Origin: an uncultured archaeon | GTDB taxonomy: Archaea > Iainarchaeota > Iainarchaeia > Iainarchaeales > DATDZZ01 | Assembly: GCA_964373795.1 (NCBI GenBank) | Contig: CAYJVY010000006.1 | Span: 68,325-100,324 of the forward strand | Length of the DNA stretch: 32,000 nt | Direction: 5' to 3' | Part shown: positions 1 through 13,533 of the stretch, in pieces | Layout: each line of letters starts with the position of its first letter | Numbering within the stretch: the first letter of the stretch is position 1 | Made by a program: the position numbers and the translations under genes | The notes under the pieces: model-generated | Databases searched by the model: none | Seen by the model: only the letters and a program-made list of their open reading frames with translations | Told to the model about the DNA's origin: nothing

Positions 1-293
1 ATACTTGGATGTTTTGATAACCATACTTTTCCTAACACTCTTCTTTTATTATGTAAATCTCTTAACGTAATTGTTGTAATTGGCGTTCTTTTATTTCTAC
101 TAGCGCCAAAGACTGATTTTCCTTGAGAGGTTCCTTTCAATTGAATTTTTTTTGCAGTAACATCTTCAACAAATTCCCCTACAAGTGTTTCTCCAATTAT
201 AAAAACTTGTCTAGCAGTTTCTCTTTGGCTTCCAACATATCTTACTGGAATAATTCTTTTACGTGCTCTTTGTCGCGGCCTTCTTTGAAGCAT
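1..293 (-). CDS. Hypothetical basic protein, N-terminal 97 codons only (gene runs off the left edge of the window)
   Basis: My own reverse-strand translation from the ATG at 293-291 gives MLQRRPRQRARKRIIPVRYVGSQRETARQVFIIGETLVGEFVEDVTAKKIQLKGTSQGKSVFGASRNKRTPITTITLRDLHNKRRVLGKVWLSKHPS and stays open to position 1. It is absent from the ORF track because it is truncated. The Arg-rich N-terminus hints at an RNA/ribosome-associated protein, but I cannot assign a family. Confidence 0.5.
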   Translation of the reverse strand, partial: MLQRRPRQRARKRIIPVRYVGSQRETARQVFIIGETLVGEFVEDVTAKKIQLKGTSQGKSVFGASRNKRTPITTITLRDLHNKRRVLGKVWLSKHPS

Positions 294-387
294 TTTGTAA
301 CCTTAAATTTAAATAAATAGTTAACTTAAATCATTTATATTAATTTCTTTTGTTAACATGCATATTTTTTGATTAAAAAAGATTAAA

Positions 388-471
388 GCACGGGTACCGA
401 AGCGGTTAAACGGACCGGACTCAAGATCCGGTGACTTAGTGTCTTCACAGGTTCAAATCCTGTCCCGTGCA
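388..471 (+). tRNA. tRNA-Leu (anticodon CAA), class II with a long variable arm
   Basis: The cloverleaf was folded by eye. Acceptor stem is GCACGGG/CCCGTGC with discriminator A. D stem is CCG/CGG. Anticodon stem is CCGGA/TCCGG with loop CTCAAGA (CAA). A roughly 15-nt variable arm contains GAC/GTC pairing. T arm is ACAGG-TTCAAAT-CCTGT. No CCA is encoded, and a T-run follows. The region is a local GC-rich island in AT-rich DNA. Confidence 0.9.
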
Positions 472-753
472 TTTTGAAGTTTATGAATAAAGAAAATAGT
501 ATTTTGCGTTTTGTTTCACTTGATTTGTTTAGAACTCTAATAATTTTAGCATTCCTTTTTTTCAATCTCCTGGAAATTTTTGTTTCACAAGAAAAAATTC
601 CTCTTTTTTTTAAAACACAATCAAGGACAAATTTTATTGCCAGTTAATTTAATTGCACCTTCATTTGCATTCATTATTGGAGCTGCATTATTTGTTACAT
701 TTTTAAGTAAAAATTCTTTACTGCTTTGGATTTCGCAATTCGATTGGATTTTT

Positions 754-1554
754 TTAAGTCAAAAAATTAGCATGCTTTTTTTCCAAGAAAAAAATTAGTT
801 CAGTTGCCAAATCAATTCCTGAATTAGCTTTTTGAAATTTCTCAAAATTTGGTTGAAAAGAAATATTTGAAACAAAATGGTTTTCATTTGAATCAACTTT
901 AAATGAAATGCTTGCAAAATCAAAAGAATAGTTCAGTAAAAAGTTTGTTGAAAGCTCAATTAAATTGCTTGAAAGTTTTTGGCCTTTAATTTTATTAGTT
1001 GTAATTGAAGTTGCGCACACAACTTTGGATCCTATAGCAAGGCATTCAATTTCTTTTTCATAATCCAGTCGTTCTTGAATTAAATATCTATTAGTTGAAC
1101 TGAGTTTTTTGATTATTGAATCAAATTCATTTAGTTTGACTGCATTAATTTCAGTTGAATCGTTTGCTCCAAAAATATTAATTTCATTGTTTTGAAATGA
1201 TTCAATTAATTCGTTTAACTTTAATTTACTGAATTTAGGCATATCTAATACTATTGTCTTTGGAATCAATACATTTGATTTTTTTGATAAAATATATAAT
1301 TCATATTTTGTTGGATTGATTTTCAAAACATTTTTGTTTGCAAGAAAAGTTGTAAATGAAAGATTATTCAAAACTGCATTTATTTTTTCAAAACTAGTTG
1401 GAGATTCAATTATTACTGAATTAGGCGAATACTCTTCGAGTTTGTTTAAATCTTTTTCAAGAATAAAGTCGAAAATATGTTCTCTTTCCTCAGCAGTTTT
1501 AATTAGTTTTTTATGAAAAGAATTTAATTCTTTTGAAATCCATAAAATTTTCAT
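754..1554 (-). CDS. ATP-grasp-like (RimK/LysX-type) protein, apparently degenerate
   Basis: This is a 266-aa ORF with an ATG start. The segment YLIQERLDYEKEIECLAIGSKVVCA resembles the ATP-grasp 'hhhQEyi...D/E-h-R/C-hhhhG-kvv-a' core. The usual KP..GS.G loop and the E-x-N metal-binding motif are not recognisable (IFGANDS, VSNISFQPNF). Confidence 0.35.
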   Translation of the reverse strand: MKILWISKELNSFHKKLIKTAEEREHIFDFILEKDLNKLEEYSPNSVIIESPTSFEKINAVLNNLSFTTFLANKNVLKINPTKYELYILSKKSNVLIPKTIVLDMPKFSKLKLNELIESFQNNEINIFGANDSTEINAVKLNEFDSIIKKLSSTNRYLIQERLDYEKEIECLAIGSKVVCATSITTNKIKGQKLSSNLIELSTNFLLNYSFDFASISFKVDSNENHFVSNISFQPNFEKFQKANSGIDLATELIFFLEKKHANFLT

Positions 1555-1563
1555 TTTAACACT

Positions 1564-1896
1564 TTAAGGTTTTTTTTGAGTTTTAAGTTCAGAGTACAAA
1601 GAAGTTAAAAGCGCTTTTCGTTGATCTATTAAACCTCTAGGAATTTGTTGTCCGCGAGATTGTAAAACTAATAATTCGCTTTCAACTTTTTTTAAGTTTA
1701 AAAAAATTGAATGCGCACGAGACCCTTTTTCAACTGCATGACTTTCATGTCCAAATCTTCCTAAAAAATTAATTCCAACCTTTTCAATTTTTGGAGGCAT
1801 TGCAGCTTGGCGTCTTTTTTCAGCCTCTACAAATATTTGAGCAAACGCTCTAAATCGACGAGTTGTTGGTTCTCTTCTTGCAGCAAGTATAGGCAT
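1564..1896 (-). CDS. Hypothetical protein with an Arg-rich N-terminus (110 aa)
   Basis: The ORF has an ATG start. It lies 24 nt downstream of the ribL-like gene and 9 nt upstream of the ATP-grasp-like gene, so an operon context is likely. The N-terminus reads MPILAARREPTTRRFRAF. I recognise no family. Confidence 0.5.
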   Translation of the reverse strand: MPILAARREPTTRRFRAFAQIFVEAEKRRQAAMPPKIEKVGINFLGRFGHESHAVEKGSRAHSIFLNLKKVESELLVLQSRGQQIPRGLIDQRKALLTSLYSELKTQKKP

Positions 1897-1920
1897 ACTA
1901 ATAAATTGTTTTTGAATTAT

Positions 1921-2349
1921 TTAATTCTTTTGATTTTTTATTTTTTCTTTAATTTTACTTGTTTTATGAATTTCAGGTTTAAAAGGACTTAATCTAATGA
2001 TTTGAGTTCGGCAATTGTTTTCTTTTAAGAATTGAATTAATTTTTTTTCATCAACTCTTTGATCATACCCTAGAGCAATAATGTCTGGATTAATTTCAAG
2101 AACTGTTTTAAAAATCTCTTTTTTTCTGCCTAAAACAGCGTTGTCCACAACTTTTAACTCTTTAATTAATTGAAGTCTATGTAATTCGGAATTAGAGGGA
2201 TAAAATCCTTTAATTTTTTTAACATTTTCATCTCTTGCAATTACTACTATTAATTTACTTCCAAGTTCTTTGGCTCGTTTTAAGTATTGCAAATGCCCTG
2301 GATGAAGTAAATCAAATGTCCCAAAAGCTAGTACTGTTTTTTCATTCAT
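1921..2349 (-). CDS. ribL: Cytidylyltransferase-fold nucleotidyltransferase, probably archaeal FAD synthetase (FMN adenylyltransferase RibL)
   Basis: The 142-aa product has an N-terminal GTFDLLHPGH (HxGH nucleotidyltransferase motif). Size and layout are typical of archaeal RibL. A TagD-like glycerol-3-phosphate cytidylyltransferase cannot be excluded. Confidence 0.6.
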   Translation of the reverse strand: MNEKTVLAFGTFDLLHPGHLQYLKRAKELGSKLIVVIARDENVKKIKGFYPSNSELHRLQLIKELKVVDNAVLGRKKEIFKTVLEINPDIIALGYDQRVDEKKLIQFLKENNCRTQIIRLSPFKPEIHKTSKIKEKIKNQKN

Positions 2350-2393
2350 TTTTTTGCCTTGAATTTTTAGTAAAACAATTGTACTGGAAATAA

Positions 2394-2400
2394 TTTAAAT
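2394..2400 (+). promoter_or_regulatory. Putative TATA box (TTTAAAT) for tyrS
   Basis: AATTTAAAT lies 32-38 nt upstream of the tyrS ATG, in the divergent spacer between ribL and tyrS. Confidence 0.4.
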
Positions 2401-2431
2401 TGATTGTTATTATTTCAGTTAAAGTGATTTA

Positions 2432-3400
2432 ATGGATTTAGAGGAAAAACTTGCTTTAATTAAAAGAAACACTGTTGAATTAATTGAGGAAAAAGAATTA
2501 ACTGAAATTCTTCAAACAAAGTCAAATCCAGTAACTTATTGCGGGTATGAACCAAGCGGGGAAATGCATTTAGGGCATTTTGTTACTTTAACTAAATTAG
2601 TTGACTTGGAGAAAGCAGGGTTTAAAGTAAAAGTTTTACTTGCTGACTGGCATGCATGGTTAAACAAAAAAGGTTCTTGGGAGCAAATTCATGAAATTGC
2701 AAAAGTTTGGGAAAAAGCATTCAAAGCATTGGGGTTGAAAAATGCTGAATATGTTTTAGGATCAAGTTTTCAACGAAAAAATGAATACTTGGATGATGTT
2801 TTAACTCTGGCATTGAATACAACTGTTAATCGTTCAATTCGTTCAATGCAAGAAGTTGCAAGAGACGTTGAAAATGCAACTGTTTCTCAAATGATTTACC
2901 CCTTAATGCAAATAACTGACATTAAATACTTAAAAGTAGATGTAACAGAGGCAGGAATAGAGCAAAGAAAAATTCACATGCTTGGAAGAGAAATAATGGA
3001 AAAAATTAATTATCCAAAGCCTTGTTTAGTTCATACTCCTTTAATTAATTCCTTGCTTGGCCCTGGAAAAAAAATGAGTTCCTCCGAACCAAATTCACTT
3101 ATAAGTGTTCGAGATTCCGAACAAGACGTTTTAAAGAAAATCAATAAAGCTTATTGCCCTGAAGGCATAACTGAAAACAATCCTGTTCTAGAAATAACTA
3201 AGTTAATTATTTTTCCAAGAATTAAATCTTTTGAAGTTTCTCGCCCAGAAAAATTTGGAGGAAATGTTTCCTTTGAAAACTTTACTGAGTTAGAAAAAGC
3301 TTTTGCTGAAAAAAAGTTGCATCCAATGGATTTAAAAAATACAGTTTCAAAATATTTGCTAGAAATATTAGAACCAGTAAGAAAGGCATTCAATAATTAA
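2432..3400 (+). CDS. tyrS: Tyrosyl-tRNA synthetase, archaeal type
   Basis: The 322-aa product carries class I aaRS motifs: YCGYEPSGEMHLGH (HIGH-type) and KMSSS (KMSKS-type). Its short length is typical of archaeal TyrRS. Confidence 0.9.
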   Translation: MDLEEKLALIKRNTVELIEEKELTEILQTKSNPVTYCGYEPSGEMHLGHFVTLTKLVDLEKAGFKVKVLLADWHAWLNKKGSWEQIHEIAKVWEKAFKALGLKNAEYVLGSSFQRKNEYLDDVLTLALNTTVNRSIRSMQEVARDVENATVSQMIYPLMQITDIKYLKVDVTEAGIEQRKIHMLGREIMEKINYPKPCLVHTPLINSLLGPGKKMSSSEPNSLISVRDSEQDVLKKINKAYCPEGITENNPVLEITKLIIFPRIKSFEVSRPEKFGGNVSFENFTELEKAFAEKKLHPMDLKNTVSKYLLEILEPVRKAFNN

Positions 3401-3406
3401 AAAAGG

Positions 3407-3414
3407 TTTAAATA
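3407..3414 (+). promoter_or_regulatory. Putative TATA box (TTTAAATA)
   Basis: It lies 30-37 nt upstream of the ATG at 3444. Confidence 0.4.
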
Positions 3415-3443
3415 GTAGTTTACCTATTATTTTTTCGATTAAA

Positions 3444-4091
3444 ATGAATTTATTCAACTTATTTGTTAACCCTAGACAGGCAGTGAAGGATTCTCTTTCA
3501 AATCCAAATACGGCATTAATTGGAGTATTATTAATCGCACATGTATTGGTTGGATTAATAATTTTTGTTTTAAGAGGTTTAACGCTTAACTTGGTTCAAA
3601 GCGTTTTGCAAGTCGTTAACTCAATTATATTGGTTTTAGTTTTAACAGTTATAGTTTATTTTTTTTCAAAGTTTTCCAAGCAACAAAAATCTTTAATTGA
3701 TCGAAACAAATTATTTTTAGGTTTAATTCAAGCTTTTGCTTTAACTTTTTTCTATATTTTACTTGGAACAATTTTTTATGGAGTTCCAATTTTGTTGTTG
3801 AATAAAGAATTAGCAAAACCAATTCAAGATGCAACTGCTGGAACTATTACTTCTCAAGAATTATTTACTGTGTTAGACAGCAAGCTTTCAACTGAAAGTA
3901 CTTTCCCATTATCAATTATTTTAGGAGCATCACTTGTATTAATTTCATTAATGTTTTTGTATATTCTTTATCTATGGTATTTAGTGGTTTCTGAAACCCT
4001 TCAAGCAGGGTTTGTGAAGAATATTATTTTCTTTGTAATACTGTTATTGCTTGGATACCTTGTAATGGCTTTAAAGGGATTCTTATTCTAG
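3444..4091 (+). CDS. Polytopic membrane protein (Yip1-like topology), function unknown
   Basis: The 215-aa product has a short polar N-terminus followed by about 5 hydrophobic segments. I see no catalytic motifs. Confidence 0.5.
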   Translation: MNLFNLFVNPRQAVKDSLSNPNTALIGVLLIAHVLVGLIIFVLRGLTLNLVQSVLQVVNSIILVLVLTVIVYFFSKFSKQQKSLIDRNKLFLGLIQAFALTFFYILLGTIFYGVPILLLNKELAKPIQDATAGTITSQELFTVLDSKLSTESTFPLSIILGASLVLISLMFLYILYLWYLVVSETLQAGFVKNIIFFVILLLLGYLVMALKGFLF

Positions 4092-4187
4092 TTAAGCTTT
4101 AAATAAATGCAAAAATTGAAACAAAAAATATAAATACTTGTTTTACTGGTAAAATATTATTTAATATTACTGAAAAGGCGATTAAAC

Positions 4188-4385
4188 ATGAAAGTGAAAT
4201 GCCCTGGATGTGAAGAACGATTTGATGTAGACAAAAATGAATATGATGAAGACGATGTATTAGATTGCCCTGAATGCGAGGAAACCTTGATTTTAAAGGT
4301 TAAAGGTGGAAAATTTGTAGCCAAACTAGATAAAGAAAAATATGATGAAGATCTAGAAGATTATTACAATGAAGAAGACGAATAA
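4188..4385 (+). CDS. Small zinc-ribbon protein with an acidic C-terminal tail (LysW-like architecture)
   Basis: The 65-aa product has CPGC...x18...CPEC, giving four Cys ligands. The tail KYDEDLEDYYNEEDE ends in Glu. Confidence 0.6.
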   Translation: MKVKCPGCEERFDVDKNEYDEDDVLDCPECEETLILKVKGGKFVAKLDKEKYDEDLEDYYNEEDE

Positions 4386-4472
4386 GCCTTTAATGCAAGA
4401 ATTAATTTTAGCTATTCTTTTATTATAACTTTTATTCCTTTCTTATTTTAATTTACATTTAAGTTGATTTAA

Positions 4473-5867
4473 ATGAGTTTTGAAATATTTAATTCTCTTT
4501 CAAAGAAAAAAGAAGAATTCAAGCCATTAGAAGAAAATGAAGTAAAGATGTATGTTTGTGGACCCACAGTTTATGGTCCAGGCCATATAGGTCATGCAAA
4601 AACGTATACTGCTTTTGATATTATTAGAAGATATTTGGAATACTCTGGATTTAAAGTTAAATTTGTTGTAAACCTTACTGATGTGCATGATGACATGATT
4701 TCAAAAGCAAACGAACAAGGAATAACTATTTTTGAATTAGCTGAAAAAAACATTAAGCTTTTTTTTAAAGACATGGATGAATTAGGAATTAAAAAAGCAG
4801 ATATTAATCCAAGGGTAACTGAAACCATTCCTGAAATAATTGAACTGGTTAAAACCTTGCAAGAAAAAGGTTTTGCCTATGAAACAGAAGACGGAGTTTA
4901 TTTTAATGTACAAAAGTTTAAAGATTATGGAAAACTAGCAGGAATTAAAATTGAAAAAACTTTAACTGGAACAAGAGTTAAAACAGATAAATATGATAAA
5001 GAAAATGTTCAAGACTTTGCTTTATGGAAAAAACAAAAACTCGGAGAACCTTTTTGGGAAAGTCCTTGGGGAAGAGGCAGACCTGGATGGCATATTGAAT
5101 GTTCTGCCATGAGTAAAAAGCACTTAGGAGAACAAATAGATATTCACGGAGGCGCAGTTGACTTAATTTTTCCACATCATCAAAACGAAATAGCTCAAAG
5201 CGAAGCTGCTAGCGGGAAAAAACCTTTTGTAAAATATTGGTTGCATTCAGGGTTTCTAAATGTTGAAGGAGAAAAAATGTCTAAAAGTTTGGGAAACTAT
5301 ATCGAGATTCCAAAGCTTTTAGAAAAATACGATCCAAAAGTTTTCAGATTTTTTGTTGCAGGAATTCATTATAGAAGCCCAATTGATTTCACTGATTCAG
5401 CAATGCAAATAGCCAAAAAAACTCTTGAAAAATTAAATGACTTCATTAGAAGAATGCACGAAATTCAAAACGAAAAAAATAATTCCAAAATAATTGAATT
5501 AATTACTGAAACCAGAAAAAAGTTCATTAAAGAAATGAATGAAGACTTTAATACTCCTAATGCGTGGGCAACAATATTTGATTTTGTTTCAACAATAAAT
5601 AAATTTGAAGCTGAAAATAACTTAAGTAAAAAAGATGCTGAACAAGTGATGGATTTTATGAAAGAATTAGACACAATCTTTAAGGTTTTTAATTTTGAAC
5701 AAAAAAATGAATTAGATAAAGAAGTTGAAGAATTAATTCAGAAAAGAGAAGAATTTAGAAAACAAAAAAAGTTTTCAGAAGCAGATGAAATTCGTGCACA
5801 ATTAACTGCAAAAGGAATTCAATTGCTTGACACTCCTGAAGGAGTTAAATGGAAAAAAATAAGTTAA
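4473..5867 (+). CDS. cysS: Cysteinyl-tRNA synthetase
   Basis: The 464-aa product has GPGHIGHA (HIGH), KMSKSLGN (KMSKS) and the WHIECS zinc/cysteine-binding region. Confidence 0.92.
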   Translation: MSFEIFNSLSKKKEEFKPLEENEVKMYVCGPTVYGPGHIGHAKTYTAFDIIRRYLEYSGFKVKFVVNLTDVHDDMISKANEQGITIFELAEKNIKLFFKDMDELGIKKADINPRVTETIPEIIELVKTLQEKGFAYETEDGVYFNVQKFKDYGKLAGIKIEKTLTGTRVKTDKYDKENVQDFALWKKQKLGEPFWESPWGRGRPGWHIECSAMSKKHLGEQIDIHGGAVDLIFPHHQNEIAQSEAASGKKPFVKYWLHSGFLNVEGEKMSKSLGNYIEIPKLLEKYDPKVFRFFVAGIHYRSPIDFTDSAMQIAKKTLEKLNDFIRRMHEIQNEKNNSKIIELITETRKKFIKEMNEDFNTPNAWATIFDFVSTINKFEAENNLSKKDAEQVMDFMKELDTIFKVFNFEQKNELDKEVEELIQKREEFRKQKKFSEADEIRAQLTAKGIQLLDTPEGVKWKKIS

Positions 5868-5880
5868 ATATCAAGCAAAT

Positions 5881-5890
5881 AATTAAATAC
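5881..5890 (+). promoter_or_regulatory. Putative TATA box (AATTAAATAC)
   Basis: It lies 26-35 nt upstream of the ATG at 5916. Confidence 0.35.
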
Positions 5891-5915
5891 ATTAAAAACC
5901 ATTTTTTTAGTTATT

Positions 5916-7703
5916 ATGGCAATGCTTGACTTAACTTTATTGCTTGACTTGGGACTAATTATAATAGCTGCAACTGTGCTAGGATATGTTGCTAAAGCAT
6001 TAAAGCAACCTCCACTAATTGCATATATTGCAGCAGGATTGCTTATAGGGCCATATGCATTAGGTTCATTGGGAATAAGGTTTGGTCCAATTCCAGTACT
6101 AGGAGTTGGCCCTGAACAAATAAATAATATAATAATTTTATCCGAATTAGGAGTAGCATTTCTATTATTTTCAATTGCTGCTGAAACAAATTTTTCTAAA
6201 ATGTTTCAATTAAGAAACATTTTATTTGCAGGAGGAATTCTTCAAGTACTTTTAAGCACTGTTCTAGTATTCTTTTTAACTTTTTTAATTCTTCCAAATG
6301 CAATTCAAGCAATTTACATCGGATTCATTCTAGCGTTTAGTTCTACTATGATGGTTGTAAAAGTTTTATCAGACAAACAAGAAATTAATACAATTCATGG
6401 AAGGTTAATGGTTGGATTTCTTCTAGTGCAAGATGTAATAGTTATTCTTTTACTTCCTTTAATTGCAAAAATCTCTACTCAACTATCTTTTTTTCTTTTA
6501 TTAGAGGTTTTCTTAAAAGCATTCATTCTTTTTGCAATAGGATTTTTATTTAACAAATTTATTTTACCAAAATTAATTTCTTATTCAAGTAAATCAGTTG
6601 AATTGTTTTATTTAAGTAGTTTAAGTGTTTGCTTTTTATTCATCATTTTATCTCATTTAATGAATTTTTCAATTGCAGTAGGAGCATTTATTGGAGGACT
6701 AGCAATTTCAAATTTATTATTTAATTTAGAAATTGTTAGCAACATTAAGGGTTTAAGAAATTTTTTTGCCACAATATTTTTTGTAACACTTGGAATGCAA
6801 ATAAATTTTTCTTTTATAAATTTTTCCATTCCATTATTTGCTTTAATGTTGTTTGCTGTTTTCATTTTAAAACCAATTATTTTCAGCATTATTACTTTTT
6901 TTAGTGGCTATGGAGGAAGAATTTCTTTATTAGTTGGATTAGGCTTAGCTCAAGTAAGTGAATTTTCTTTTATTTTATTAAATCAAGGATTTAATGGAGG
7001 GCAAGGCCCTTTAAGTCAAGAAGTTTTTTCGAGTTCAATACTTGTAATTGGATTATCAATGGCTTTAACTCCTTACATTATAAAATACGACGACAAAATA
7101 AGTTTCTTTTTTAGAAACCGCTTAAGGAAAATAGATTTCTTGGCAAAATTTTTTGACAAACACAAACAAAATCTTGACAAATTAAGTAATGTTCCATTAA
7201 AATTAAACAAACACATTGTATTATTTGGTTGTGGGGAAACAGGTAAAGGATTTGTTTCGACTTTTAATGAAACTCAAAACCTTGTAGTAGTTGACAACGA
7301 TCCAAAAGTAATAGAAGAACTAATAAGTAAAGACGCTTATGCAATTTATGGCTCAGTTGAACATTTAGAGGCATTAGAAAAAGCTGGCTTGACTAGAGCT
7401 GATTTATTGGTTATTACAATTCCAAACGAAGAAGCATCAATTTATTTAACTGAATTAGCTAAACAAATAAATCCAGACATCATAATTTTTGCAAGAGCAC
7501 ATCATAACGAAGGCGTAATAAAATTATATGAAAAAGGAGCAGACTTAGTTATTGCTCCTGAAACACTTGCATCAACTGAATTAATTAAAAATGTTTCAAA
7601 TTATTTAGAGAAAGGGAAAAAGTTTAAAATAAAATTAAGAAAACAATATTTAGACTATGTAAAAAATGGATTAAGAAATAAAGAAAATAATTTCAAAATC
7701 TAA
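5916..7703 (+). CDS. Kef-type monovalent cation:proton antiporter (CPA2) with a C-terminal RCK/TrkA-N domain
   Basis: The 595-aa product has about 12 hydrophobic helices, followed by a Rossmann motif IVLFGCGETGKG and a soluble domain. Confidence 0.8.
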   Translation: MAMLDLTLLLDLGLIIIAATVLGYVAKALKQPPLIAYIAAGLLIGPYALGSLGIRFGPIPVLGVGPEQINNIIILSELGVAFLLFSIAAETNFSKMFQLRNILFAGGILQVLLSTVLVFFLTFLILPNAIQAIYIGFILAFSSTMMVVKVLSDKQEINTIHGRLMVGFLLVQDVIVILLLPLIAKISTQLSFFLLLEVFLKAFILFAIGFLFNKFILPKLISYSSKSVELFYLSSLSVCFLFIILSHLMNFSIAVGAFIGGLAISNLLFNLEIVSNIKGLRNFFATIFFVTLGMQINFSFINFSIPLFALMLFAVFILKPIIFSIITFFSGYGGRISLLVGLGLAQVSEFSFILLNQGFNGGQGPLSQEVFSSSILVIGLSMALTPYIIKYDDKISFFFRNRLRKIDFLAKFFDKHKQNLDKLSNVPLKLNKHIVLFGCGETGKGFVSTFNETQNLVVVDNDPKVIEELISKDAYAIYGSVEHLEALEKAGLTRADLLVITIPNEEASIYLTELAKQINPDIIIFARAHHNEGVIKLYEKGADLVIAPETLASTELIKNVSNYLEKGKKFKIKLRKQYLDYVKNGLRNKENNFKI

Positions 7704-8345
7704 CTATAAAAGTTTTTCTTTTAATTCTTGAATTGCTTTTTTTCTATCTGTTTGACCAAAAATTGCATTTCCGGCAACCAAAACATTTGCTCCTGCTTTC
7801 ACTACCTTTTGCACTGTATCAAGATTAATTCCGCCATCAACTTCAATATCTAAATTTGGTTTTAATTTTCGTAGTTTAGAAATTTTTGGTAAAACTGATT
7901 CAATAAATGTTTGCCCGCCAAAACCAGGGTTAACTGTCATCAATAAAACCATGTCTAATTCATCTAAAACATCTTCAATTGAATTCAAAGAGGTTGCAGG
8001 GTTTAATGCAACTGCAGCTTTTACTCCGCAAGACTTTATTTGCTGAATAACTCTATGCAAATGAGGACACGCTTCAACATGAACTGTAATAGAAGCTGCT
8101 CCTGCTTTAACAAATTCTTCAACAAATTTTTCGGGTTCAACAATCATTAAATGACAATCCAATGGTTTTGAAGATTTCAATTTTTTTACTACAGGTGGCC
8201 CAATAGTAATATTTGGAACAAACCTTCCATCCATTACATCTACATGAATTAAATCAACTTTTGATTCAACTAAAGCAATTTCTTCATTAATTTTTCCAAA
8301 ATCAGCTGATAAAATGCTTGGAGCAATTAAAACTTTTTTATTCAT
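7704..8345 (-). CDS. rpe: Ribulose-phosphate 3-epimerase
   Basis: The 213-aa product contains PSILSADF, HVDVMDG.FVPN, MTVNPGFGGQ and VDGGI motifs. Confidence 0.92.
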   Translation of the reverse strand: MNKKVLIAPSILSADFGKINEEIALVESKVDLIHVDVMDGRFVPNITIGPPVVKKLKSSKPLDCHLMIVEPEKFVEEFVKAGAASITVHVEACPHLHRVIQQIKSCGVKAAVALNPATSLNSIEDVLDELDMVLLMTVNPGFGGQTFIESVLPKISKLRKLKPNLDIEVDGGINLDTVQKVVKAGANVLVAGNAIFGQTDRKKAIQELKEKLL

Positions 8346-8926
8346 TTAAATGGTCCTCCAGGAATTAAAAAAAATATAATTAAATTTGCAATAATAATTC
8401 CAAGAATTTCAGCAACAATTAAAAGTATTATAGGCAATAAAGTTTTAAAATGAAATATAATGTTCAAAAATTCAAGCAAAACAAAATTAGCATAATACCA
8501 TGAAAAATTTAAATAATATGAGAACGGAATTGGTTTTTTTGAAAACAAACTTCCAAAATATATTAAAAAAATTGAAAAAAACACTAAAGCAATTGTTAAA
8601 AAAATAACCATTAAAGAAATATAAAAAGTTAAAAACCAAATCATTCCTAATACAAAAATTATCAAATTATTTTCAGGTTGAACATATTTGTTAAAAAAAG
8701 GAATAATTGGAAAAATAAAAATCAATGGCAAAAGGCAGGCAATTGGAATTAAAATAATTACTCCCAGAAATGAAACTGCTCTTTCAATGTCATTTTCAGG
8801 AGTAAATCCTTTATATAAATCCAAACGAGAATTAATTGAATTAAATAAATTTTGGTCAACTGAAATCAAGTTATTTTTTAATTTAATTACAAAACTCGCA
8901 TACGGTTTAAGAAAAAAATCAAACAT
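8342..8926 (-). CDS. Polytopic membrane protein of unknown function, between rpiB and rpe
   Basis: The 194-aa product has an ATG start and about 5 TM segments. Its TGA stop overlaps the rpe ATG (ATGA, 8342-8345). Confidence 0.55.
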   Translation of the reverse strand: MFDFFLKPYASFVIKLKNNLISVDQNLFNSINSRLDLYKGFTPENDIERAVSFLGVIILIPIACLLPLIFIFPIIPFFNKYVQPENNLIIFVLGMIWFLTFYISLMVIFLTIALVFFSIFLIYFGSLFSKKPIPFSYYLNFSWYYANFVLLEFLNIIFHFKTLLPIILLIVAEILGIIIANLIIFFLIPGGPFK

Positions 8927-8943
8927 TTTAATCAGCTATTTTC

Positions 8944-9420
8944 TCAATTTGGTTTAAGAAATTGCTTTTCTATCTCTTTAATTTTATTCAATCTACGCAA
9001 ATGCCTTTCATTTTCTGGTTTGCTTCCTTCAAACTTTGTTTTTAAAAAAATTTCTACAAACTTTAATGCATCTTCTTGATTTAAAAGTTTTTCACCTAAA
9101 CATAAGACATTTGTATCTCCATGTTCTCGACATTGTTTTGCAGATGCTTCACTGAATACAACTGCTGCCCTTATGCCTGGAACCTTATTTGCTGTTAAAG
9201 CCATTCCCATTCCAGTTCCACAAACTAAAATTCCTTGAGAATTAGGATTTTTTACAACATTTTGTGCAACGCTTAAAGCAAAATCAGGGTAATCACAACT
9301 TTCTTCAGAATTAGTGCCAATGTCAGTGAATTTAAAGCCCAGTTCTTTTAATTTTTCTTTAATTGCTTTCTTTAATTTAAACCCAGCATGATCTGATCCA
9401 ATAAAAATTTTCAAACACAT
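8944..9420 (-). CDS. rpiB: Ribose-5-phosphate isomerase B (RpiB/LacAB family)
   Basis: The 158-aa product has IGSDHAGFKLK at the N-terminus and the VCGTGMGM catalytic Cys loop. Confidence 0.9.
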   Translation of the reverse strand: MCLKIFIGSDHAGFKLKKAIKEKLKELGFKFTDIGTNSEESCDYPDFALSVAQNVVKNPNSQGILVCGTGMGMALTANKVPGIRAAVVFSEASAKQCREHGDTNVLCLGEKLLNQEDALKFVEIFLKTKFEGSKPENERHLRRLNKIKEIEKQFLKPN

Positions 9421-9489
9421 AAAAACTAATTAAATAAAGAACTCGTTATTCTTAAATACTTATTTTTTAGTTTTGAACTAGTCAACATA

Positions 9490-9497
9490 TTTAAATA
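9490..9497 (+). promoter_or_regulatory. Putative TATA box (TTTAAATA)
   Basis: It lies 22-29 nt upstream of the ATG at 9519, which implies a leaderless or near-leaderless mRNA. Confidence 0.4.
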
Positions 9498-9518
9498 CTA
9501 TAAACCTGTATTTGATTG

Positions 9519-9971
9519 ATGAAATTAAAAATTTGCATTACAGCTTCTGCAGGAGGGCATTTAACTGAAATACTACAACTACGACAGCATTATTCAAAAT
9601 ATATTCATTTTTATGTTTCAGATTATAGAACTAATGCAATTGATTTAAGCAAAAAAGAACAAGTTTTTTTTGTTGAATGCCCTAGGAGAAATCCATTAAA
9701 TCTTTTAAAGAATTTTTTTCAGTCAATTAAAATTTTTTTAAAAGAAAAACCTGATTTAGTTATTTCAACTGGTGCAGATACTGCTTTTTCTATTTGCTTG
9801 CTTGCAAAATTATTCGGAAAAAAACTAATTTTCATTGAATCGTTCGCAAGAATTGACCAGCCATCCTTGAGTGGAAAAATTTTTTATCCAATAGCGGATT
9901 TATTTTTTATTCAATGGCCTGAAAATAAAAAGTTTTTTCCAAAAGCAGTTTATGTTGGAGCAGTATTTTAA
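9519..9971 (+). CDS. Alg14-like glycosyltransferase membrane-anchoring subunit (PssD/Cps14F-like)
   Basis: The product has ITASAGGHLTE (compare the GSGGHT.EM motif of Alg14). It sits immediately upstream of an Alg13-like gene. The track ORF starts at TTG 9516; ATG 9519 is more likely. Confidence 0.7.
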   Translation: MKLKICITASAGGHLTEILQLRQHYSKYIHFYVSDYRTNAIDLSKKEQVFFVECPRRNPLNLLKNFFQSIKIFLKEKPDLVISTGADTAFSICLLAKLFGKKLIFIESFARIDQPSLSGKIFYPIADLFFIQWPENKKFFPKAVYVGAVF

Positions 9972-9980
9972 GGTGAGAAA

Positions 9981-10463
9981 ATGAATATCTTTGTAACAGT
10001 TGGCACTCACCCGATGAGTTTTCATAGATTAACAAATGAATTAGATTTTTTAATTGAAAAATGCATGCTTGAAGACAAAATTTTTGCTCAAATTGGGTCA
10101 ACTACTCCAAAACCAAAAAACTTTGATTTTGTGGAATTGCTTTCAGAAAAAGAATATTCTAAATGGTTTGATTGGGCTGATATAGTAATATCTCACGGTG
10201 GAGCTGGAAGCATAATAAATGCTTTGGCCAGAAATAAAAAATTAATTGTAGTTCCAAGGTTAAAAAAATTCTCTGAACATACAAATGATCATCAAATAGA
10301 TTTAGCTCGCTTGCTTGAAAAACAAAAAAAGGTTTTAGGAGTATATAATATTAAATCTCTTGGCACAATAATTGAAAAAGCAAAAAAATTCAAATTCAAT
10401 GTTAAAAAAGAAGAAAACCAAATTGGAAAAAAAATCGAAGAATTTATTTCAACAAATTTTTAA
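9981..10463 (+). CDS. Alg13-like glycosyltransferase catalytic subunit (GT28 C-terminal domain; PssE/Cps14G-like)
   Basis: The 160-aa product has the VISHGGAGSIINAL motif typical of the MurG/Alg13 C-terminal domain. An AGGTGA sequence lies 5 nt upstream of the ATG. The last 6 codons and the stop lie inside the left direct repeat. Confidence 0.72.
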   Translation: MNIFVTVGTHPMSFHRLTNELDFLIEKCMLEDKIFAQIGSTTPKPKNFDFVELLSEKEYSKWFDWADIVISHGGAGSIINALARNKKLIVVPRLKKFSEHTNDHQIDLARLLEKQKKVLGVYNIKSLGTIIEKAKKFKFNVKKEENQIGKKIEEFISTNF

Positions 10464-10493
10464 TTTGAGTTGAGAGATTTTCTGCAGTGAAAC
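10443..10493. repeat. Left copy of a perfect 51-bp direct repeat
   Basis: tTTATTTCAACAAATTTTTAATTTGAGTTGAGAGATTTTCTGCAGTGAAAC is identical base-for-base to 10980-11030 by my manual alignment. Confidence 0.95.
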
Positions 10494-10502
10494 AAAATTT
10501 GT

Positions 10503-10730
10503 TTATAAGAGTTTCAGAAAATTTTCTCGTTTCATTTGCAAATCGTGTTTTACTATTTTATTCAAAAGGCTTCTATCAATGTCTTCTCCACCATGATTTG
10601 GGATTACAGTTGTTCTACCATCTGGATGTTCAAAAAACATATGACTTCCTTGTTGTCTTTTCAATTCAAATCCAAGTCGCTTTAGAATTTTCGCCAATTC
10701 AAGAGCATTCATTAGCGGAAGCTTTGACAT
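10503..10730 (-). CDS. hicA: HicA-family mRNA interferase toxin
   Basis: The 75-aa product contains ELAKILKRLGFELKRQQGSHMFFEHPDGRTTVIPNHGGEDI, the classic HicA dsRBD-like signature with conserved GSH. Confidence 0.88.
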   Translation of the reverse strand: MSKLPLMNALELAKILKRLGFELKRQQGSHMFFEHPDGRTTVIPNHGGEDIDRSLLNKIVKHDLQMKRENFLKLL

Positions 10731-10731
10731 T

Positions 10732-10941
10732 TCAAACCTCTATTTGTTGCAAACTCAAAAATTTAGTCTCAAAATTATCTAGATTTTTAACTGCAAGATA
10801 AATAGAAATTGCTTCTTTTGTTCTCTTAATTAGTTCATCATAACTTTTTGCCTGAGTATGACAACCAGGCAAACCTATTACCTCTGAAATTAAATATCCA
10901 TCTTCTCCTTGCTCAACAATTACATTAAATTTTCTTGTCAT
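10732..10941 (-). CDS. hicB: HicB-like antitoxin (UPF0150, short form without a DNA-binding domain)
   Basis: The 69-aa product reads FNVIVEQGEDGYLISEVIGLPGCHTQAKSYDELIKRTKEAI, matching the HicB N-terminal fold signature. Its stop is 1 nt from the hicA ATG. Confidence 0.82.
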   Translation of the reverse strand: MTRKFNVIVEQGEDGYLISEVIGLPGCHTQAKSYDELIKRTKEAISIYLAVKNLDNFETKFLSLQQIEV

Positions 10942-10962
10942 AATATAATACTTCTAAATGTT

Positions 10963-10972
10963 CTATAAATAG
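10963..10972 (-). promoter_or_regulatory. Putative TATA box of the hicBA cassette
   Basis: The minus strand reads CTATTTATAG, 22-31 nt upstream of the hicB ATG and inside the insert. Confidence 0.4.
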
Positions 10973-10979
10973 TTATCGT

Positions 10980-11030
10980 TTTATTTCAACAAATTTTTAA
11001 TTTGAGTTGAGAGATTTTCTGCAGTGAAAC
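10980..11030. repeat. Right copy of the perfect 51-bp direct repeat
   Basis: It is identical to 10443-10493. It encodes the authentic 3' end of the transketolase C-terminal subunit (..FTAENLSTQIKNLLK*). Confidence 0.95.
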
Positions 11031-11943
11031 CGTATTTTGTATATAACTCTAATGGCTTGCCTGATTCTCCAAAACGATTTTGCATTCCAATTCTCTTAAA
11101 AGGAATTGAACAAGAATTTTCAGCTAATACTTCACTTACAGCTGAGCCAAGCCCGCCAATTATTTGATGATCTTCTGCAGTAATTAATGCATTTGTTTCT
11201 TTTGCTGCTTTTAAAATAATTTTTTCATCAATGGGTTTAATTGAATGAATATTTATTACTCTGCAAGAAATTTTTTCTTGTTCTAAAAGTTTTGCGGCAT
11301 TTAATGCAATATAAACTAGTCCTCCAGTTGCAATAATGGTTGCATCACTTCCTTCATGTAATTGAACTCCTTTTCCAAGTTCAAATTCATAATCTGCATT
11401 GTTTACTGTAGGAGTTTTTTCTCTGTTTGTACGCAAATAACTTGCTTCTTTAAATTCTGCTAAAAATTTTGTTGCCTCGCGAGTTTCAATTCCATCGCAT
11501 GGCACTATTACATTCATGAAAGGCAGTGTTCGAAAATAAGAAATGTCTTCCAAGCATTGCGCTGTTGCTCCATCTTGTCCTGTAAGTAATCCTGCATGCG
11601 AGCCCACAAGCTTTACTGGAACTTGTGCATAGCAAACGCTTTGTCTAATTATTTCAATTGCTCGAGTTAAAAAAATTGCAAAAGTTGAAGCAAAAACTTT
11701 TTTTCCTTCAAGAGTTAAACCAACAGACATTCCAACCATGTTTTGCTCGCAAATTCCTACATAGTGAAACCTGTTTGGATCAACTTCTTTTACAGTAATG
11801 CTTTTAGTGGATAAAGCTAAATCAGCATCTAAAGCAATAATGTTTTTGTCCTTTGCAGCTAATTCTTTTAAAGCTTCTCCATAAGCATCTCTTGTTGCAA
11901 TCATTTCAATTTTTTGTTCAGTCATCTGATCAACTCTATCCAT
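10981..11943 (-). CDS. tkt: Transketolase, C-terminal (pyrimidine-binding plus C-terminal domain) subunit
   Basis: The 320-aa product contains ATRDAYGEAL and a GICEQNMVGM-type pyrimidine-binding region. This is typical of archaeal split transketolase. The start could also be the ATG at 11925. Confidence 0.9.
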   Translation of the reverse strand: MDRVDQMTEQKIEMIATRDAYGEALKELAAKDKNIIALDADLALSTKSITVKEVDPNRFHYVGICEQNMVGMSVGLTLEGKKVFASTFAIFLTRAIEIIRQSVCYAQVPVKLVGSHAGLLTGQDGATAQCLEDISYFRTLPFMNVIVPCDGIETREATKFLAEFKEASYLRTNREKTPTVNNADYEFELGKGVQLHEGSDATIIATGGLVYIALNAAKLLEQEKISCRVINIHSIKPIDEKIILKAAKETNALITAEDHQIIGGLGSAVSEVLAENSCSIPFKRIGMQNRFGESGKPLELYTKYGFTAENLSTQIKNLLK

Positions 11944-12664
11944 GAATTACGTCAAAAAATATTAATTTGTTATCCCACTTACTAAAAAAGGCGTTCCAGG
12001 GAGCCAATGAAGTTTGAGTTCTTAACATGTTTCGCAATTGTGCAATAAATCTTTCAAGCTGAGTTCCTTTACTTTTATCCTCAAACTTTTTGCTTTGCAA
12101 TAAGTCTTGAACTGTTTGAACTTCTCCAAGTTGATGTAATTCAGTAATAATTATTCCAGGCAAACCCTCTTTTCCGGAATGTCCATAATGATATTTTACT
12201 ACCTCAAAAGTAATTCCAGGAAATTTTGCTTGAAGTTCTTGTTTTCGCGCTAAGAGTTCTTTTCTCAAATCCTGTGCAACTTTAATTTGATCAATGTCTC
12301 CTTGACTTGGAAGTATTTTAACAAAAAAACTTTTTCCTTCAATCTCTAATTTGAATACTCCTCTATTTCTTCTACCTTCATATCTTGAAGTAAATGGATG
12401 AGAAAGTTTTACAGTTACAAGTGAATGAAATTCATTGTTAAGCCTTATTTCTCGAGTAACCTTTTCCCCTACTTTTAACCCGCCTTCGTGTTCTTTTATT
12501 ATTTGCCATAGCTTGGGAAGAAGGCCTTTATTTCTAACTAAAAATTCTCTGAATTCTTTTGAATAAAATGCGCGCGGACGTTGAGCAACTTTTTTTCTTA
12601 TGCTAGAAGGTTTTCTAGGTAAACGCTTTTCAGCCGATTTTCTGTTTCTTTGATTTATGCGCAT
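11936..12664 (-). CDS. Hypothetical protein inserted between the two transketolase subunit genes; Arg-rich N-terminus
   Basis: The ORF is open to TTG 12676. The first ATG is at 12664, preceded by GGTGA with 5-nt spacing, 5 nt downstream of the tkt-N TGA. Its TAG stop at 11936-11938 overlaps the first ATG of the tkt-C ORF. I recognise no family with confidence; see the findings for a weak kinase-like pattern. Confidence 0.6.
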   Translation of the reverse strand: MRINQRNRKSAEKRLPRKPSSIRKKVAQRPRAFYSKEFREFLVRNKGLLPKLWQIIKEHEGGLKVGEKVTREIRLNNEFHSLVTVKLSHPFTSRYEGRRNRGVFKLEIEGKSFFVKILPSQGDIDQIKVAQDLRKELLARKQELQAKFPGITFEVVKYHYGHSGKEGLPGIIITELHQLGEVQTVQDLLQSKKFEDKSKGTQLERFIAQLRNMLRTQTSLAPWNAFFSKWDNKLIFFDVIHG

Positions 12665-12669
12665 TAATC

Positions 12670-13533
12670 TCACCAAGTTCCGTCAACTAGTTTTTCGTTT
12701 AGTTCGCGAATAGCTTGCTCTAATTGTTCTTGAGTTGGAGCCTTGCCGTGAAAAGAAGGATTATTGTTAATAAATGAAACCCCCTTGCCTTTCACTGTAT
12801 TACAAATTATTGCAAAAGGTTTGTCTGAAGAATCTGCTTCATTTAATGCTTGAATTATTTCTTCAACTTTATGGCCGTTAACTACTCTTACATTCCAATT
12901 AAAGGCTTCAAATTTTTTGTCTAAGGGATCTACGCTTAAAATTTCGTTTACAAATCCATCGTTTTGAATTCCGTTTTTATCGATTACTGCAACCAAGTTA
13001 TGTAATTTTTTGAATCCAGCAAAAGCAGCTGTTTCCCATATAATTCCTTCTTGGGTTTCTCCATCGCCTAGCCATGCAAAAACTTTGTGTTTTTTTTCAT
13101 CAAGTTTTGCAGCTAAAGCCATTCCACATGCAACTGAAAATCCTTGTCCTAGGCTTCCAGAAGACATTTCAACTCCAGGGGTTTTCAATCTATCTGGATG
13201 GCCTTGAAGCATTCCTCCAAGTGCGCGGAGTTTTTCTAATTCTAAGTCAGGAATTATTTTTAATTTATTTAATGCTGCATAAACAATTGGGCAAGCATGT
13301 CCTTTACTCATTACAAATCTGTCCCGAGAAGGATCATGTAAATCATTTAAATTGAAATGCATTTTGTAAAAATACAAAGCAGTAATTATTTCCGCGCTTG
13401 AAAGGCTTCCACCTGGATGCCCTGAATTAGCTTTAGTAATCATTTTCAAAGCAGAAATTCTTAAGTCTCGAGCAATTTCTCTTAATTCTTGAATTTTGTC
13501 TTTTGAAAGTGTTTTCTGCATTTCCGTCGCCAC
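12670..13533 (-). CDS. tkt: Transketolase, N-terminal (thiamine diphosphate-binding) subunit
   Basis: The product has SGHPGGSLS and the GDGETQEG ThDP/Mg motif. The track ORF starts at GTG 13533, 3 nt after the tal stop. The first ATG is at 13521. Confidence 0.9.
   Translation of the reverse strand: MATEMQKTLSKDKIQELREIARDLRISALKMITKANSGHPGGSLSSAEIITALYFYKMHFNLNDLHDPSRDRFVMSKGHACPIVYAALNKLKIIPDLELEKLRALGGMLQGHPDRLKTPGVEMSSGSLGQGFSVACGMALAAKLDEKKHKVFAWLGDGETQEGIIWETAAFAGFKKLHNLVAVIDKNGIQNDGFVNEILSVDPLDKKFEAFNWNVRVVNGHKVEEIIQALNEADSSDKPFAIICNTVKGKGVSFINNNPSFHGKAPTQEQLEQAIRELNEKLVDGTW

Follow-up and report, generated by a model that had tools for sequence, protein, structure and literature searches.

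The 32,000-nucleotide stretch analysed here (contig CAYJVY010000006.1, positions 68,325 to 100,324; hereafter the window) comes from an uncultured archaeon of the Iainarchaeota and carries a two-gene toxin-antitoxin (TA) cassette, hicB-hicA, between the 3' ends of two convergent genes: one for an Alg13-like glycosyltransferase and one, tktC, for the C-terminal half of transketolase. The cassette is bracketed by two identical copies of a 51-bp sequence that is drawn from these very gene ends, and the locus therefore raises the question of how a bare TA module can enter a site at which two genes meet, leave both of them intact and do so with no recombinase found in the window. The features of the locus, as delimited by open reading frames (ORFs), Pfam searches and direct reading, are as follows:

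9516-9971, plus strand: Alg14-like gene (ORF and Pfam)
9981-10463, plus strand: Alg13-like glycosyltransferase gene with GT28 C-terminal domain (PF04101, E=5e-16); the protein ends in FISTNF
10443-10493: left 51-bp copy, of which nt 1-21 are the functional Alg13 3' end (6 codons and stop)
Left copy, nt 22-51: non-coding relic of the tktC codons for GFTAENLSTQ, containing a TTTTCT tract
10494-10508: imperfect extension of the duplication, ~11-12/16 positions matching 11031-11046 with a 1-nt gap
10494-10979, minus strand: insert of 486 bp, comprising promoter, hicB, hicA and a 9-nt tail and nothing else
10503-10730, minus strand: hicA toxin gene, 75 aa (PF07927, E=6.2e-19, 68.3 bits against a cut-off of 27)
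10732-10941, minus strand: hicB-like antitoxin gene, 69 aa, upstream of hicA (PF15919, E=1.6e-4)
10942-10979, minus strand: cassette promoter region of 38 nt (minus strand ACGATAACTATTTATAG), beginning 1 nt past the tktC stop codon
10980-11030: right 51-bp copy, of which nt 2-51 are the functional tktC 3' end (stop and last 16 codons)
10981-11943, minus strand: tktC (PF02779 and PF02780); the protein ends in FTAENLSTQIKNLLK

The two 51-mers (TTTATTTCAACAAATTTTTAATTTGAGTTGAGAGATTTTCTGCAGTGAAAC) are identical at 51/51 positions, both by direct reading and with a repeat finder (family D1), and a pattern search that allowed 3 mismatches returned 2 matches in the window as opposed to 0 in 100 shuffles; within the 32 kb the pair is the sole long local direct repeat. 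Its edges are sharp, with a and t preceding and a and c following the left and right copies, respectively. An imperfect prolongation of the repeat to 67 nt (92.5% identity, 1 gap) is returned by blastn: the extension at 10494-10508 covers the hicA stop codon together with the final two codons, is of marginal significance and could represent either a decayed piece of an original duplication of ~67 bp or a chance similarity. The TTTTCT tract in the left copy may act as a terminator for Alg13. On the minus strand of the promoter region, CGATAA is followed by TTTATA at 10969-10964, which we take to be a B recognition element (BRE) and a TATA box on the basis of established archaeal promoters. The HicB-like match is weak (22.2 bits, under the gathering cut-off of 27), and source annotations label the antitoxin of relatives HicB_lk, also weakly. 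With a GC content of 0.298 compared to 0.301 for the window, the insert is host-like in composition.

In the window with the repeat collapsed to a single copy, the Alg13-like gene and tktC overlap by 20 nt, and the reconstructed empty site reads GAAGAA, followed by the 51-mer and then by CCGTATTTTG. The nearest relative found in a protein database search was an Alg13 (P0123, 72% identical) from a Candidatus Diapherotrites metagenome-assembled genome, and the 1467-nt contig that encodes it, L118, displays exactly this arrangement: rpiB (minus strand), Alg14 (plus), Alg13 at 772-1254 (plus) and tktC at 1235-1467 (minus), with a convergent Alg13/tktC overlap of exactly 20 nt, a single copy of the repeat region and proteins that end in EEFISANF and QIKNLLK, respectively. 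L118 is collinear with the collapsed window without gaps, and the insert is missing at the L118 site. Judged from this alignment, the window lineage would have gained 537 bp, made up of the 486-bp insert and the 51-bp duplication; alternatively, the L118 lineage lost 537 bp precisely through recombination between the repeats. A duplication-generating insertion took place in either case, whether the window gained the cassette or L118 lost it, and we are almost certain that the locus records a real insertion accompanied by target duplication. Other relatives were less informative: the second-closest (P0124) differs in synteny and says nothing about the empty site, a scan of representative genomes with Alg13 returned only relatives of <=54% identity with other synteny, and the Alg13 and tktC clusters are singletons, so that there is no strain-level empty allele. 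A second empty site was sought at a cysteine desulfurase locus (L077), where all close relatives proved to be filled. One contig encountered on the way, L005 (DAOWAC010000125.1; 2.9 kb), is binned as Chloroflexota and encodes Alg14 and Alg13 homologs 52% identical to those of the window, followed by a convergent gene of 316 aa; it is probably a misbinned DPANN contig.

Much of this had been read from the window in a first-pass annotation, and its description stands. The identical 51-bp repeats are borne out by direct reading, the repeat finder and the 3-mismatch search; ORFs agree with the claims that the left copy supplies the last 6 codons and stop of the Alg13-like gene (FISTNF) and the right copy the last 16 codons and stop of tktC, and together with Pfam and the sequence itself they bear out an insert that carries only hicB, hicA and a TATA-like element. 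The 20-nt overlap that was predicted upon collapsing the repeats is exactly that of L118, whose empty site also supports the proposal that a promoter-containing minicassette arrived and kept both flanking genes intact. A doubled 51-mer in a relative lacking hicAB, which would have separated the repeat from the cassette, was not seen, as L118 has a single copy.

Independent assemblies also speak for the repeat. Identical Alg13 and tktC proteins are present in two Logan assemblies (ERR3478686 and ERR4904391), in which the Alg13 contigs, L002 from ERR3478686 (100% identical) and L003 from ERR4904391 (a strain variant with 4 single-nucleotide polymorphisms (SNPs) over 1017 nt), stop 30 nt into the repeat, 30 nt being k-1 for the Logan graph with k=31. 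The tktC contig L001 (ERR4904391) corresponds to window positions 11953-10980 and terminates exactly at the repeat's outer end. As these breaks, in two samples and two strain variants, match the behaviour of a de Bruijn graph at a true 51-mer repeat, we consider the repeat to be real; misassembly at this position is unlikely. L001 passes the repeat entry and stops only at the far end, with the hicA-side junction absent from the ERR4904391 graph, for which low coverage, tip clipping or a mixture with empty-site cells could be responsible. Exact-protein look-ups for HicA and HicB matched no record.

Is this locus a single accident? Homologs of HicA number 800 in the database, the best being 85% identical and those with a named source stemming from Woesearchaeota/Nanoarchaeota, and a metagenome scan produced 79 related loci, nearly all of which keep the hicB-hicA pair. 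Flank duplications with E<=1e-8 were present in 11/51 non-redundant related hicBA cassettes of groundwater archaea compared to 1/131 pseudo-cassettes (Fisher p=3e-6). The longest exact bracketing repeats measure 78+ bp (L034, cut by the contig end), 51 bp (the window), 40 bp (L027), 35 bp (L064) and 27 bp (L045), with shorter ones of 23 bp (L041/L042), 19 bp (L077) and 18 bp (L044) and others of 16, 15 and 14 bp, whereas most of 290 random controls gave 7-12 bp. When gaps are allowed the alignments extend to 149 bp at 88.6% identity (L027), 150 bp at 81% (L064), 102 bp at ~90% (L041/L042) and >=94 bp at 97.9% (L034), with 45-77 bp at other loci; overall, the aligned flank duplications span 27-150 bp and their sequences are unrelated between loci. 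Every resolvable repeat is the 3' end of a flanking gene, and these genes are themselves unrelated (tktC, cysteine desulfurase, a radical-SAM-like gene, an SMC-like gene and one for a large surface-type protein). The cassette-side edge of the repeat usually lies 0-7 nt past the stop codon (window +1, L070 0, L056 +1, L064 +7), and in L042 and L086 it lies at a stop codon that differs between the copies (TGA/TAG and TAG/TAA); L055, with its edge at +46, is an exception. The repeat's other edge varies between loci. Most cassettes begin 0-10 nt upstream of a conserved BRE/TATA motif (CGAAA-NN-TATATAA) that precedes hicB, several end at or near the hicA stop codon, and perfect repeats have blunt junctions, the first base beyond either edge differing between the two copies. 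Nor is the arrangement confined to hicBA: a DUF4258/DUF2283-like pair (L070/L072) and a DUF433/DUF5615 pair (L054) are bracketed likewise.

Identity between the two copies ranges from 100% (window 51/51, L086 46/46, L045 27/27) through 98%, 93%, 90% and 81% to ~70%, and comparison of relics with functional copies at two-copy loci gives 18 synonymous as opposed to 33 non-synonymous codon differences, including an in-frame stop. From sequence comparison, this is the pattern expected of an age series in which the copies would be identical at birth and the relics would decay roughly neutrally after duplication. Recent movement is indicated by cassettes that are 92% identical but differ in their right flanks (L029 versus L032/L035). 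Some loci depart from the simple arrangement. In L086 (2464-2718) the perfect 46-bp duplication of the SMC-like gene end encloses only 173 bp and a hicBA cassette follows directly after the second repeat copy, which could be a cassette remnant or the result of a two-step event. In L121 (5720-5855), an RVT_1 reverse-transcriptase gene lies ~2.2 kb from a bracketed hicBA behind cysteine desulfurase; across L121-L123, hicA is called as a 45-aa fragment or is absent from the calls, and the toxin seems to be decaying while hicB persists. In L108 a non-coding 239-bp repeat (976-1212 and 3163-3399, 89% identical) brackets several TA cassettes, and the break in synteny between L108 and L109 falls at its start; this repeat contains an internal inverted repeat (TCGTGCCC and GGGCACGA), has no Rfam match and folds weakly (z=-1.5), and may be a different kind of cassette-boundary element.

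The most elaborate case is an array in L100 (Ga0209541_10013278, 1-12616). This contig opens with a protein of >985 aa that ends in GSVIIQLG, and in the following 9.6 kb the 3' end of its gene recurs another eight to nine times, in stretches of 28-182 bp (eight by pattern search, with a further weak 17-nt match listed by BLAST). The placed copies have variable starting points and a common end at the stop codon, such that only the last ~28 nt are shared across all, and they separate a series of cassettes: PBECR2, DUF2283, PDDEXK, DUF3368, MNT/HEPN, DUF433/DUF5615, hicBA and PIN/RHH. Compared to the functional copy they display 96 synonymous and 16 non-synonymous codon differences (the neutral expectation being 25% synonymous), the compared regions are free of frameshifts and stops, indels are found only in the first codons at the variable 5' edge, and the variable sites form a mosaic SNP pattern. 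The predominance of synonymous differences indicates that the copies were working gene ends until recently. This implies that alleles turned over or that cassettes arrive with a gene end of their own, and in addition that the copies recombine with one another. Homologous recombination among gene-end copies is thus supported by L100. No gain or loss of a cassette was seen between samples of this island, as L100 and L101 are collinear.

For the window we propose that a self-contained cassette, reaching from the BRE/TATA promoter through the hicA stop codon plus 9 nt, would have been inserted 1 nt past the tktC stop, at the 20-nt overlap of tktC with the convergent Alg13-like gene, and that this insertion would have duplicated the last 50 nt of tktC plus 1 nt. 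Since the 51-bp segment holds the whole overlap, each gene keeps a complete 3' end, Alg13 through the left copy and tktC through the right. The long target duplication would have been made at the moment of insertion by the host machinery for break repair or replication: a foreign linear fragment would be joined bluntly into a break with strand cuts ~51 nt apart, and the overhangs would then be filled in. Afterwards, the direct repeats would serve as substrates for ordinary homologous recombination, which would allow precise loss, spread between related genomes and the growth of arrays at favoured gene ends. Among the mechanisms considered, we regard this integrase-independent insertion by host repair, with a long target duplication of variable length and later homologous recombination, as the most likely, although our confidence in it stops a little short of even; the repair-type origin, the lack of a dedicated recombinase and the later homologous recombination are the parts that we infer, whereas the insertion, its duplication, the empty site, the recurrence of the footprint and the variation among the repeats are shown by the sequences. 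Of the two options in the first-pass annotation, it is the undescribed mechanism for inserting TA minicassettes into compact archaeal genomes to which the survey points, the mechanism itself being inferred.

Several points weigh against host repair. Integration in the window is known from assembled contigs, and the survey loci stem mainly from a few groundwater sites, notably Rifle-type Joint Genome Institute (JGI) samples and Hainich. No enzyme or intermediate for a repair-type insertion was seen in this analysis, and we know of no defined archaeal pathway that yields staggered breaks of 27 to >100 nt. Random breaks do not explain why the edge lies within 0-2 nt of the stop codon in most loci, which suggests a targeting feature; indeed, this link of one edge to the stop codon is explained by none of the mechanisms and is the main unexplained fact. 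The 51/51 identity in the window fits a de novo duplication and recombination with an identical conspecific sequence alike. Finally, the L100 array speaks for the joint transfer of some cassettes and a copy of the end of their target gene, and its mostly synonymous differences, together with insertions that all fall at one gene end, are better accommodated by a homology-driven explanation.

Such an explanation is Campbell-type ends-in integration, in which a circle or fragment carrying hicBA and the tktC 3' end enters by a single RadA crossover that duplicates the homology; the repeat would act like attP/attB with no dedicated integrase, the whole resembling an integron without attC or IntI. 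We hold this, the main rival, to be unlikely. The duplicated segments are indeed arbitrary homology, variable in both length and sequence, and the fit is best for the L100 array: gene-end copies with variable starts and ends at the stop codon between differing TA/defence cassettes, carrying the synonymous bias and mosaic SNPs of sequences that evolved as working ends, with each insertion duplicating the same gene end and none the end of a cassette gene. Mismatches and all indels are also concentrated within ~20 nt of the variable edge (21.5% versus 14.5%, p=0.002), a part that would never become functional after a crossover, although an edge-of-alignment effect may cause some of this gradient. 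The same type of gene end furthermore recurs in L045, L038 and L054, and in several of these it directly borders the TATA box, as though it belonged to the promoter. Against this, a crossover leaves unexplained how the cassette was first joined to the end of a new target gene, and as nearly every two-copy locus has a different target gene, such first events would have to be frequent. The window insert contains no remnant of another gene end, with only 9 nt after hicA and a start at the BRE; the relics at two-copy loci resemble neutral decay in situ (18 versus 33), and the gene-end copies of related cassettes differ greatly in length (27 bp in L045, 149 bp in L027).

The first-pass annotation had likened the 51-mers to attL/attR and pointed to a trans-acting integrase. 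An integrase that inserts into gene ends classically leaves direct repeats by which the target's 3' end is restored; direct repeats surround the insert here with a single copy at the L118 empty site, and an array such as L100 resembles tandem accretion at one att site; the element would then be a non-autonomous one akin to CALINs (integrase-less attC clusters), cis-mobilizable elements or elements that exploit Xer. In Archaea, Nanoarchaeota among them, both integrons with TA cassettes and attC clusters lacking an integrase are known (PMC9668308). In spite of this, we find the involvement of such a recombinase improbable. No core sequence is common to the repeats flanking related hicBA cassettes, which align over 27-150 bp, while the L100 copies share only their last ~28 nt; the repeats are ordinary coding sequence of unrelated genes, and neither the 51-mer (z=-1.27 on both strands) nor the L100 repeat unit (z=-0.20 and +0.27) folds into an attC-like structure above shuffled sequences. 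Insert and repeats gave no match in Rfam. No integrase, transposase, Cas1, reverse transcriptase or IntI was found among the ORFs of the 32-kb window, in agreement with the earlier observation that no recombinase is present, and the 12.6-kb L100 contig likewise contains no recombinase and no IntI/attI. A search for viral carriage gave one distant match (31%) and no DNA match. Repeats that vary in sequence and length and form no hairpin, together with the lack of terminal inverted repeats and of any recombinase in the window, argue against a fixed att site, attC or a transposase, and the attL/attR proposal is thus disfavoured.

An enzyme of another kind supplied in trans, be it a transposase, casposase/Cas1 or reverse transcriptase, is more doubtful still. 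On this view, staggered cuts would have left a target-site duplication of unusual length (51 bp), or target priming as by long interspersed nuclear elements (LINEs), which gives variable lengths, would have produced it. Blunt junctions with a target duplication are typical of strand transfer or target priming, and duplications of variable length are typical of target-primed reverse transcription in particular; the window cassette ends in TTTT, like the 3' end of a transcript, and an RVT_1 gene lies near one bracketed cassette (L121). This last link concerns one locus only, however, the window has no gene for any of these enzymes, and the cassettes contain a promoter that would not be transcribed. 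No terminal inverted repeats were found in 10485-10990, no conserved cassette termini exist across related loci, where the ends differ, and a target-site duplication of short, fixed length, as known for transposases and casposases, is not what the loci display (14-78+ bp exact and up to 150 bp aligned).

The weakest alternative is an assembly artefact, in which the genome has the empty site and the 537-bp unit is a separate circle or a k-mer-sized mis-join; it is scarcely credible, for although a circle plus an empty site yields the same de Bruijn graph as the integrated form and L001 runs past the repeat entry, hiding the hicA-side junction in ERR4904391, two independent samples and two strain variants break as a true repeated 51-mer should, 51 bp is shorter than typical reads and than the largest k of common metagenome assemblers, by which such a repeat would be resolved, imperfect repeats at related loci cannot arise as assembly overlaps, and a 537-bp replicon is implausible. 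Three further candidates were set aside. A diversity-generating retroelement with variable and template repeats is rejected, as the differences are synonymous and not adenine-directed and the window copies are identical. Deletional streamlining of a larger duplication is unlikely, given that older loci still contain decayed relics of 100-150 bp that were not trimmed, and a tandem duplication followed by insertion is unlikely because the insert would have to strike the exact junction of two copies. The probability left over from the listed mechanisms covers ones that we have not considered.

Apart from the cassette, the genes of the window are housekeeping genes (those for aminoacyl-tRNA synthetases, rpe, rpiB, tktN/C, transaldolase, a homolog of the RuBisCO large subunit and a Hef-like helicase-nuclease, from Pfam and ORFs). 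Genes abut or overlap throughout (7703/7704; 8342-8345; 12670-12676; 11936-11943), and the zero-spacer convergent pairs described previously are indeed present, with no spacer between 5916-7703 (plus strand) and 7704-8345 (minus strand). Intergenic space that could receive an insertion is thus confirmed to be almost absent from the genome. Between tktN (12670-13533) and tktC lies an ORF of 246 aa without Pfam match (11936-12676, minus strand). It shares 7-8 nt with the gene on either side, is not bracketed by a repeat and gives the impression of a further gene squeezed into an operon of this gap-free genome.

How bare TA operons move has been unsettled ever since their horizontal mobility came to light. 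A comprehensive survey of TA systems records this mobility without a mechanism (PMC2701414), and a 2026 study, which still treats TA integration as unclear, suggests that larger mobile elements carried the modules in and that streamlining came afterwards (PMC13617665); our literature searches returned no description of gene-end duplications that bracket TA minicassettes. The footprint described here may show how such modules move without a recombinase of their own. An empty site together with recurrence in dozens of groundwater archaeal contigs provides a concrete signature that can be searched for: right after the stop codon of a host gene comes a cassette, promoter first, and beyond the cassette lies part of the same gene's 3' end in a second copy. 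A selfish module can thereby enter a genome that lacks intergenic space, even between overlapping genes, with its neighbours undamaged, and the gene-end repeats are a possible integrase-free analogue of integron arrays. As a wider proposal, which we put forward slightly more tentatively than the host-repair reading of the window, DPANN archaea and perhaps other organisms with compact genomes may possess a hitherto undescribed recombinase-less route that inserts bare TA/defence minicassettes right behind the stop codon of a host gene and duplicates tens to hundreds of bases of its 3' end; the duplicated ends would provide portable homology for excision, exchange and integron-like stacking without attC or an integron integrase, and the stop-adjacent edge would reflect a specific targeting step.

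In comparison with known systems, the module itself is, judged from sequence, probably of the type II HicAB kind: a HicA toxin domain and a putative HicB-like antitoxin in a two-gene operon. The antitoxin gene comes first, unlike in E. coli hicAB, where the toxin gene leads, and HicB, at 69 aa, is short and scores under the Pfam threshold; it is the mode of insertion, more than the module, that sets the locus apart. The locus as a whole combines known kinds of feature, namely target duplication, gene-end att sites and cassette arrays, and there is a fair chance that the mechanism behind them is new. As at the gene-end att sites of integrases, the flanking direct repeats copy the 3' end of the target and the gene stays intact, and as in the tandem accretion of integrative elements, repeated insertion gives arrays of partial gene-end copies such as L100; unlike at those sites, there is no recombinase in the insert, the window or the L100 contig, no core and a repeat length of 27-150 bp, and unlike in integrative elements the insert contains only a promoter and two small genes.

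Transposons, casposons and clustered regularly interspaced short palindromic repeat (CRISPR) adaptation have in common with our loci that the insert is joined bluntly and ends up between two copies of its target. Like CRISPR adaptation, casposons act beside defined sites, some of them at the 3' end of a protein gene, and the known duplications are fixed at 2-15 bp, or one CRISPR repeat, for elements with defined ends. The lengths found here vary more than tenfold, with neither inverted repeats nor conserved termini, in contrast to transposons and casposons.

Integrons and CALINs come close in another respect: they hold small cassettes, often TA pairs with their own promoter, repeats of 50-180 bp and a fixed entry point, and require no recombinase inside the cassette. 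Archaeal integrons with TA cassettes are, however, defined by folded attC sites (PMC9668308), imperfect palindromes that are read as folded single strands, whereas the repeats described here are plain coding 3' ends with no excess fold. They also differ from integrons in their variable 5' edge and in the lack of IntI/attI, although CALINs too lack IntI. With illegitimate recombination of foreign DNA and with the exchange of minimal mobile elements or TA islets through homologous recombination in the core genes on either side (PMC13617665) our loci share the absence of a dedicated recombinase and the presence of bare TA operons between core genes. Homology-facilitated illegitimate recombination differs in that the young junctions here display no microhomology, and illegitimate or minimal-element models predict replacement or simple insertion, not the stop-edged duplication of a gene end; general recombination as a route of spreading, in turn, is as plausible for these cassettes as it is in minimal-mobile-element models.

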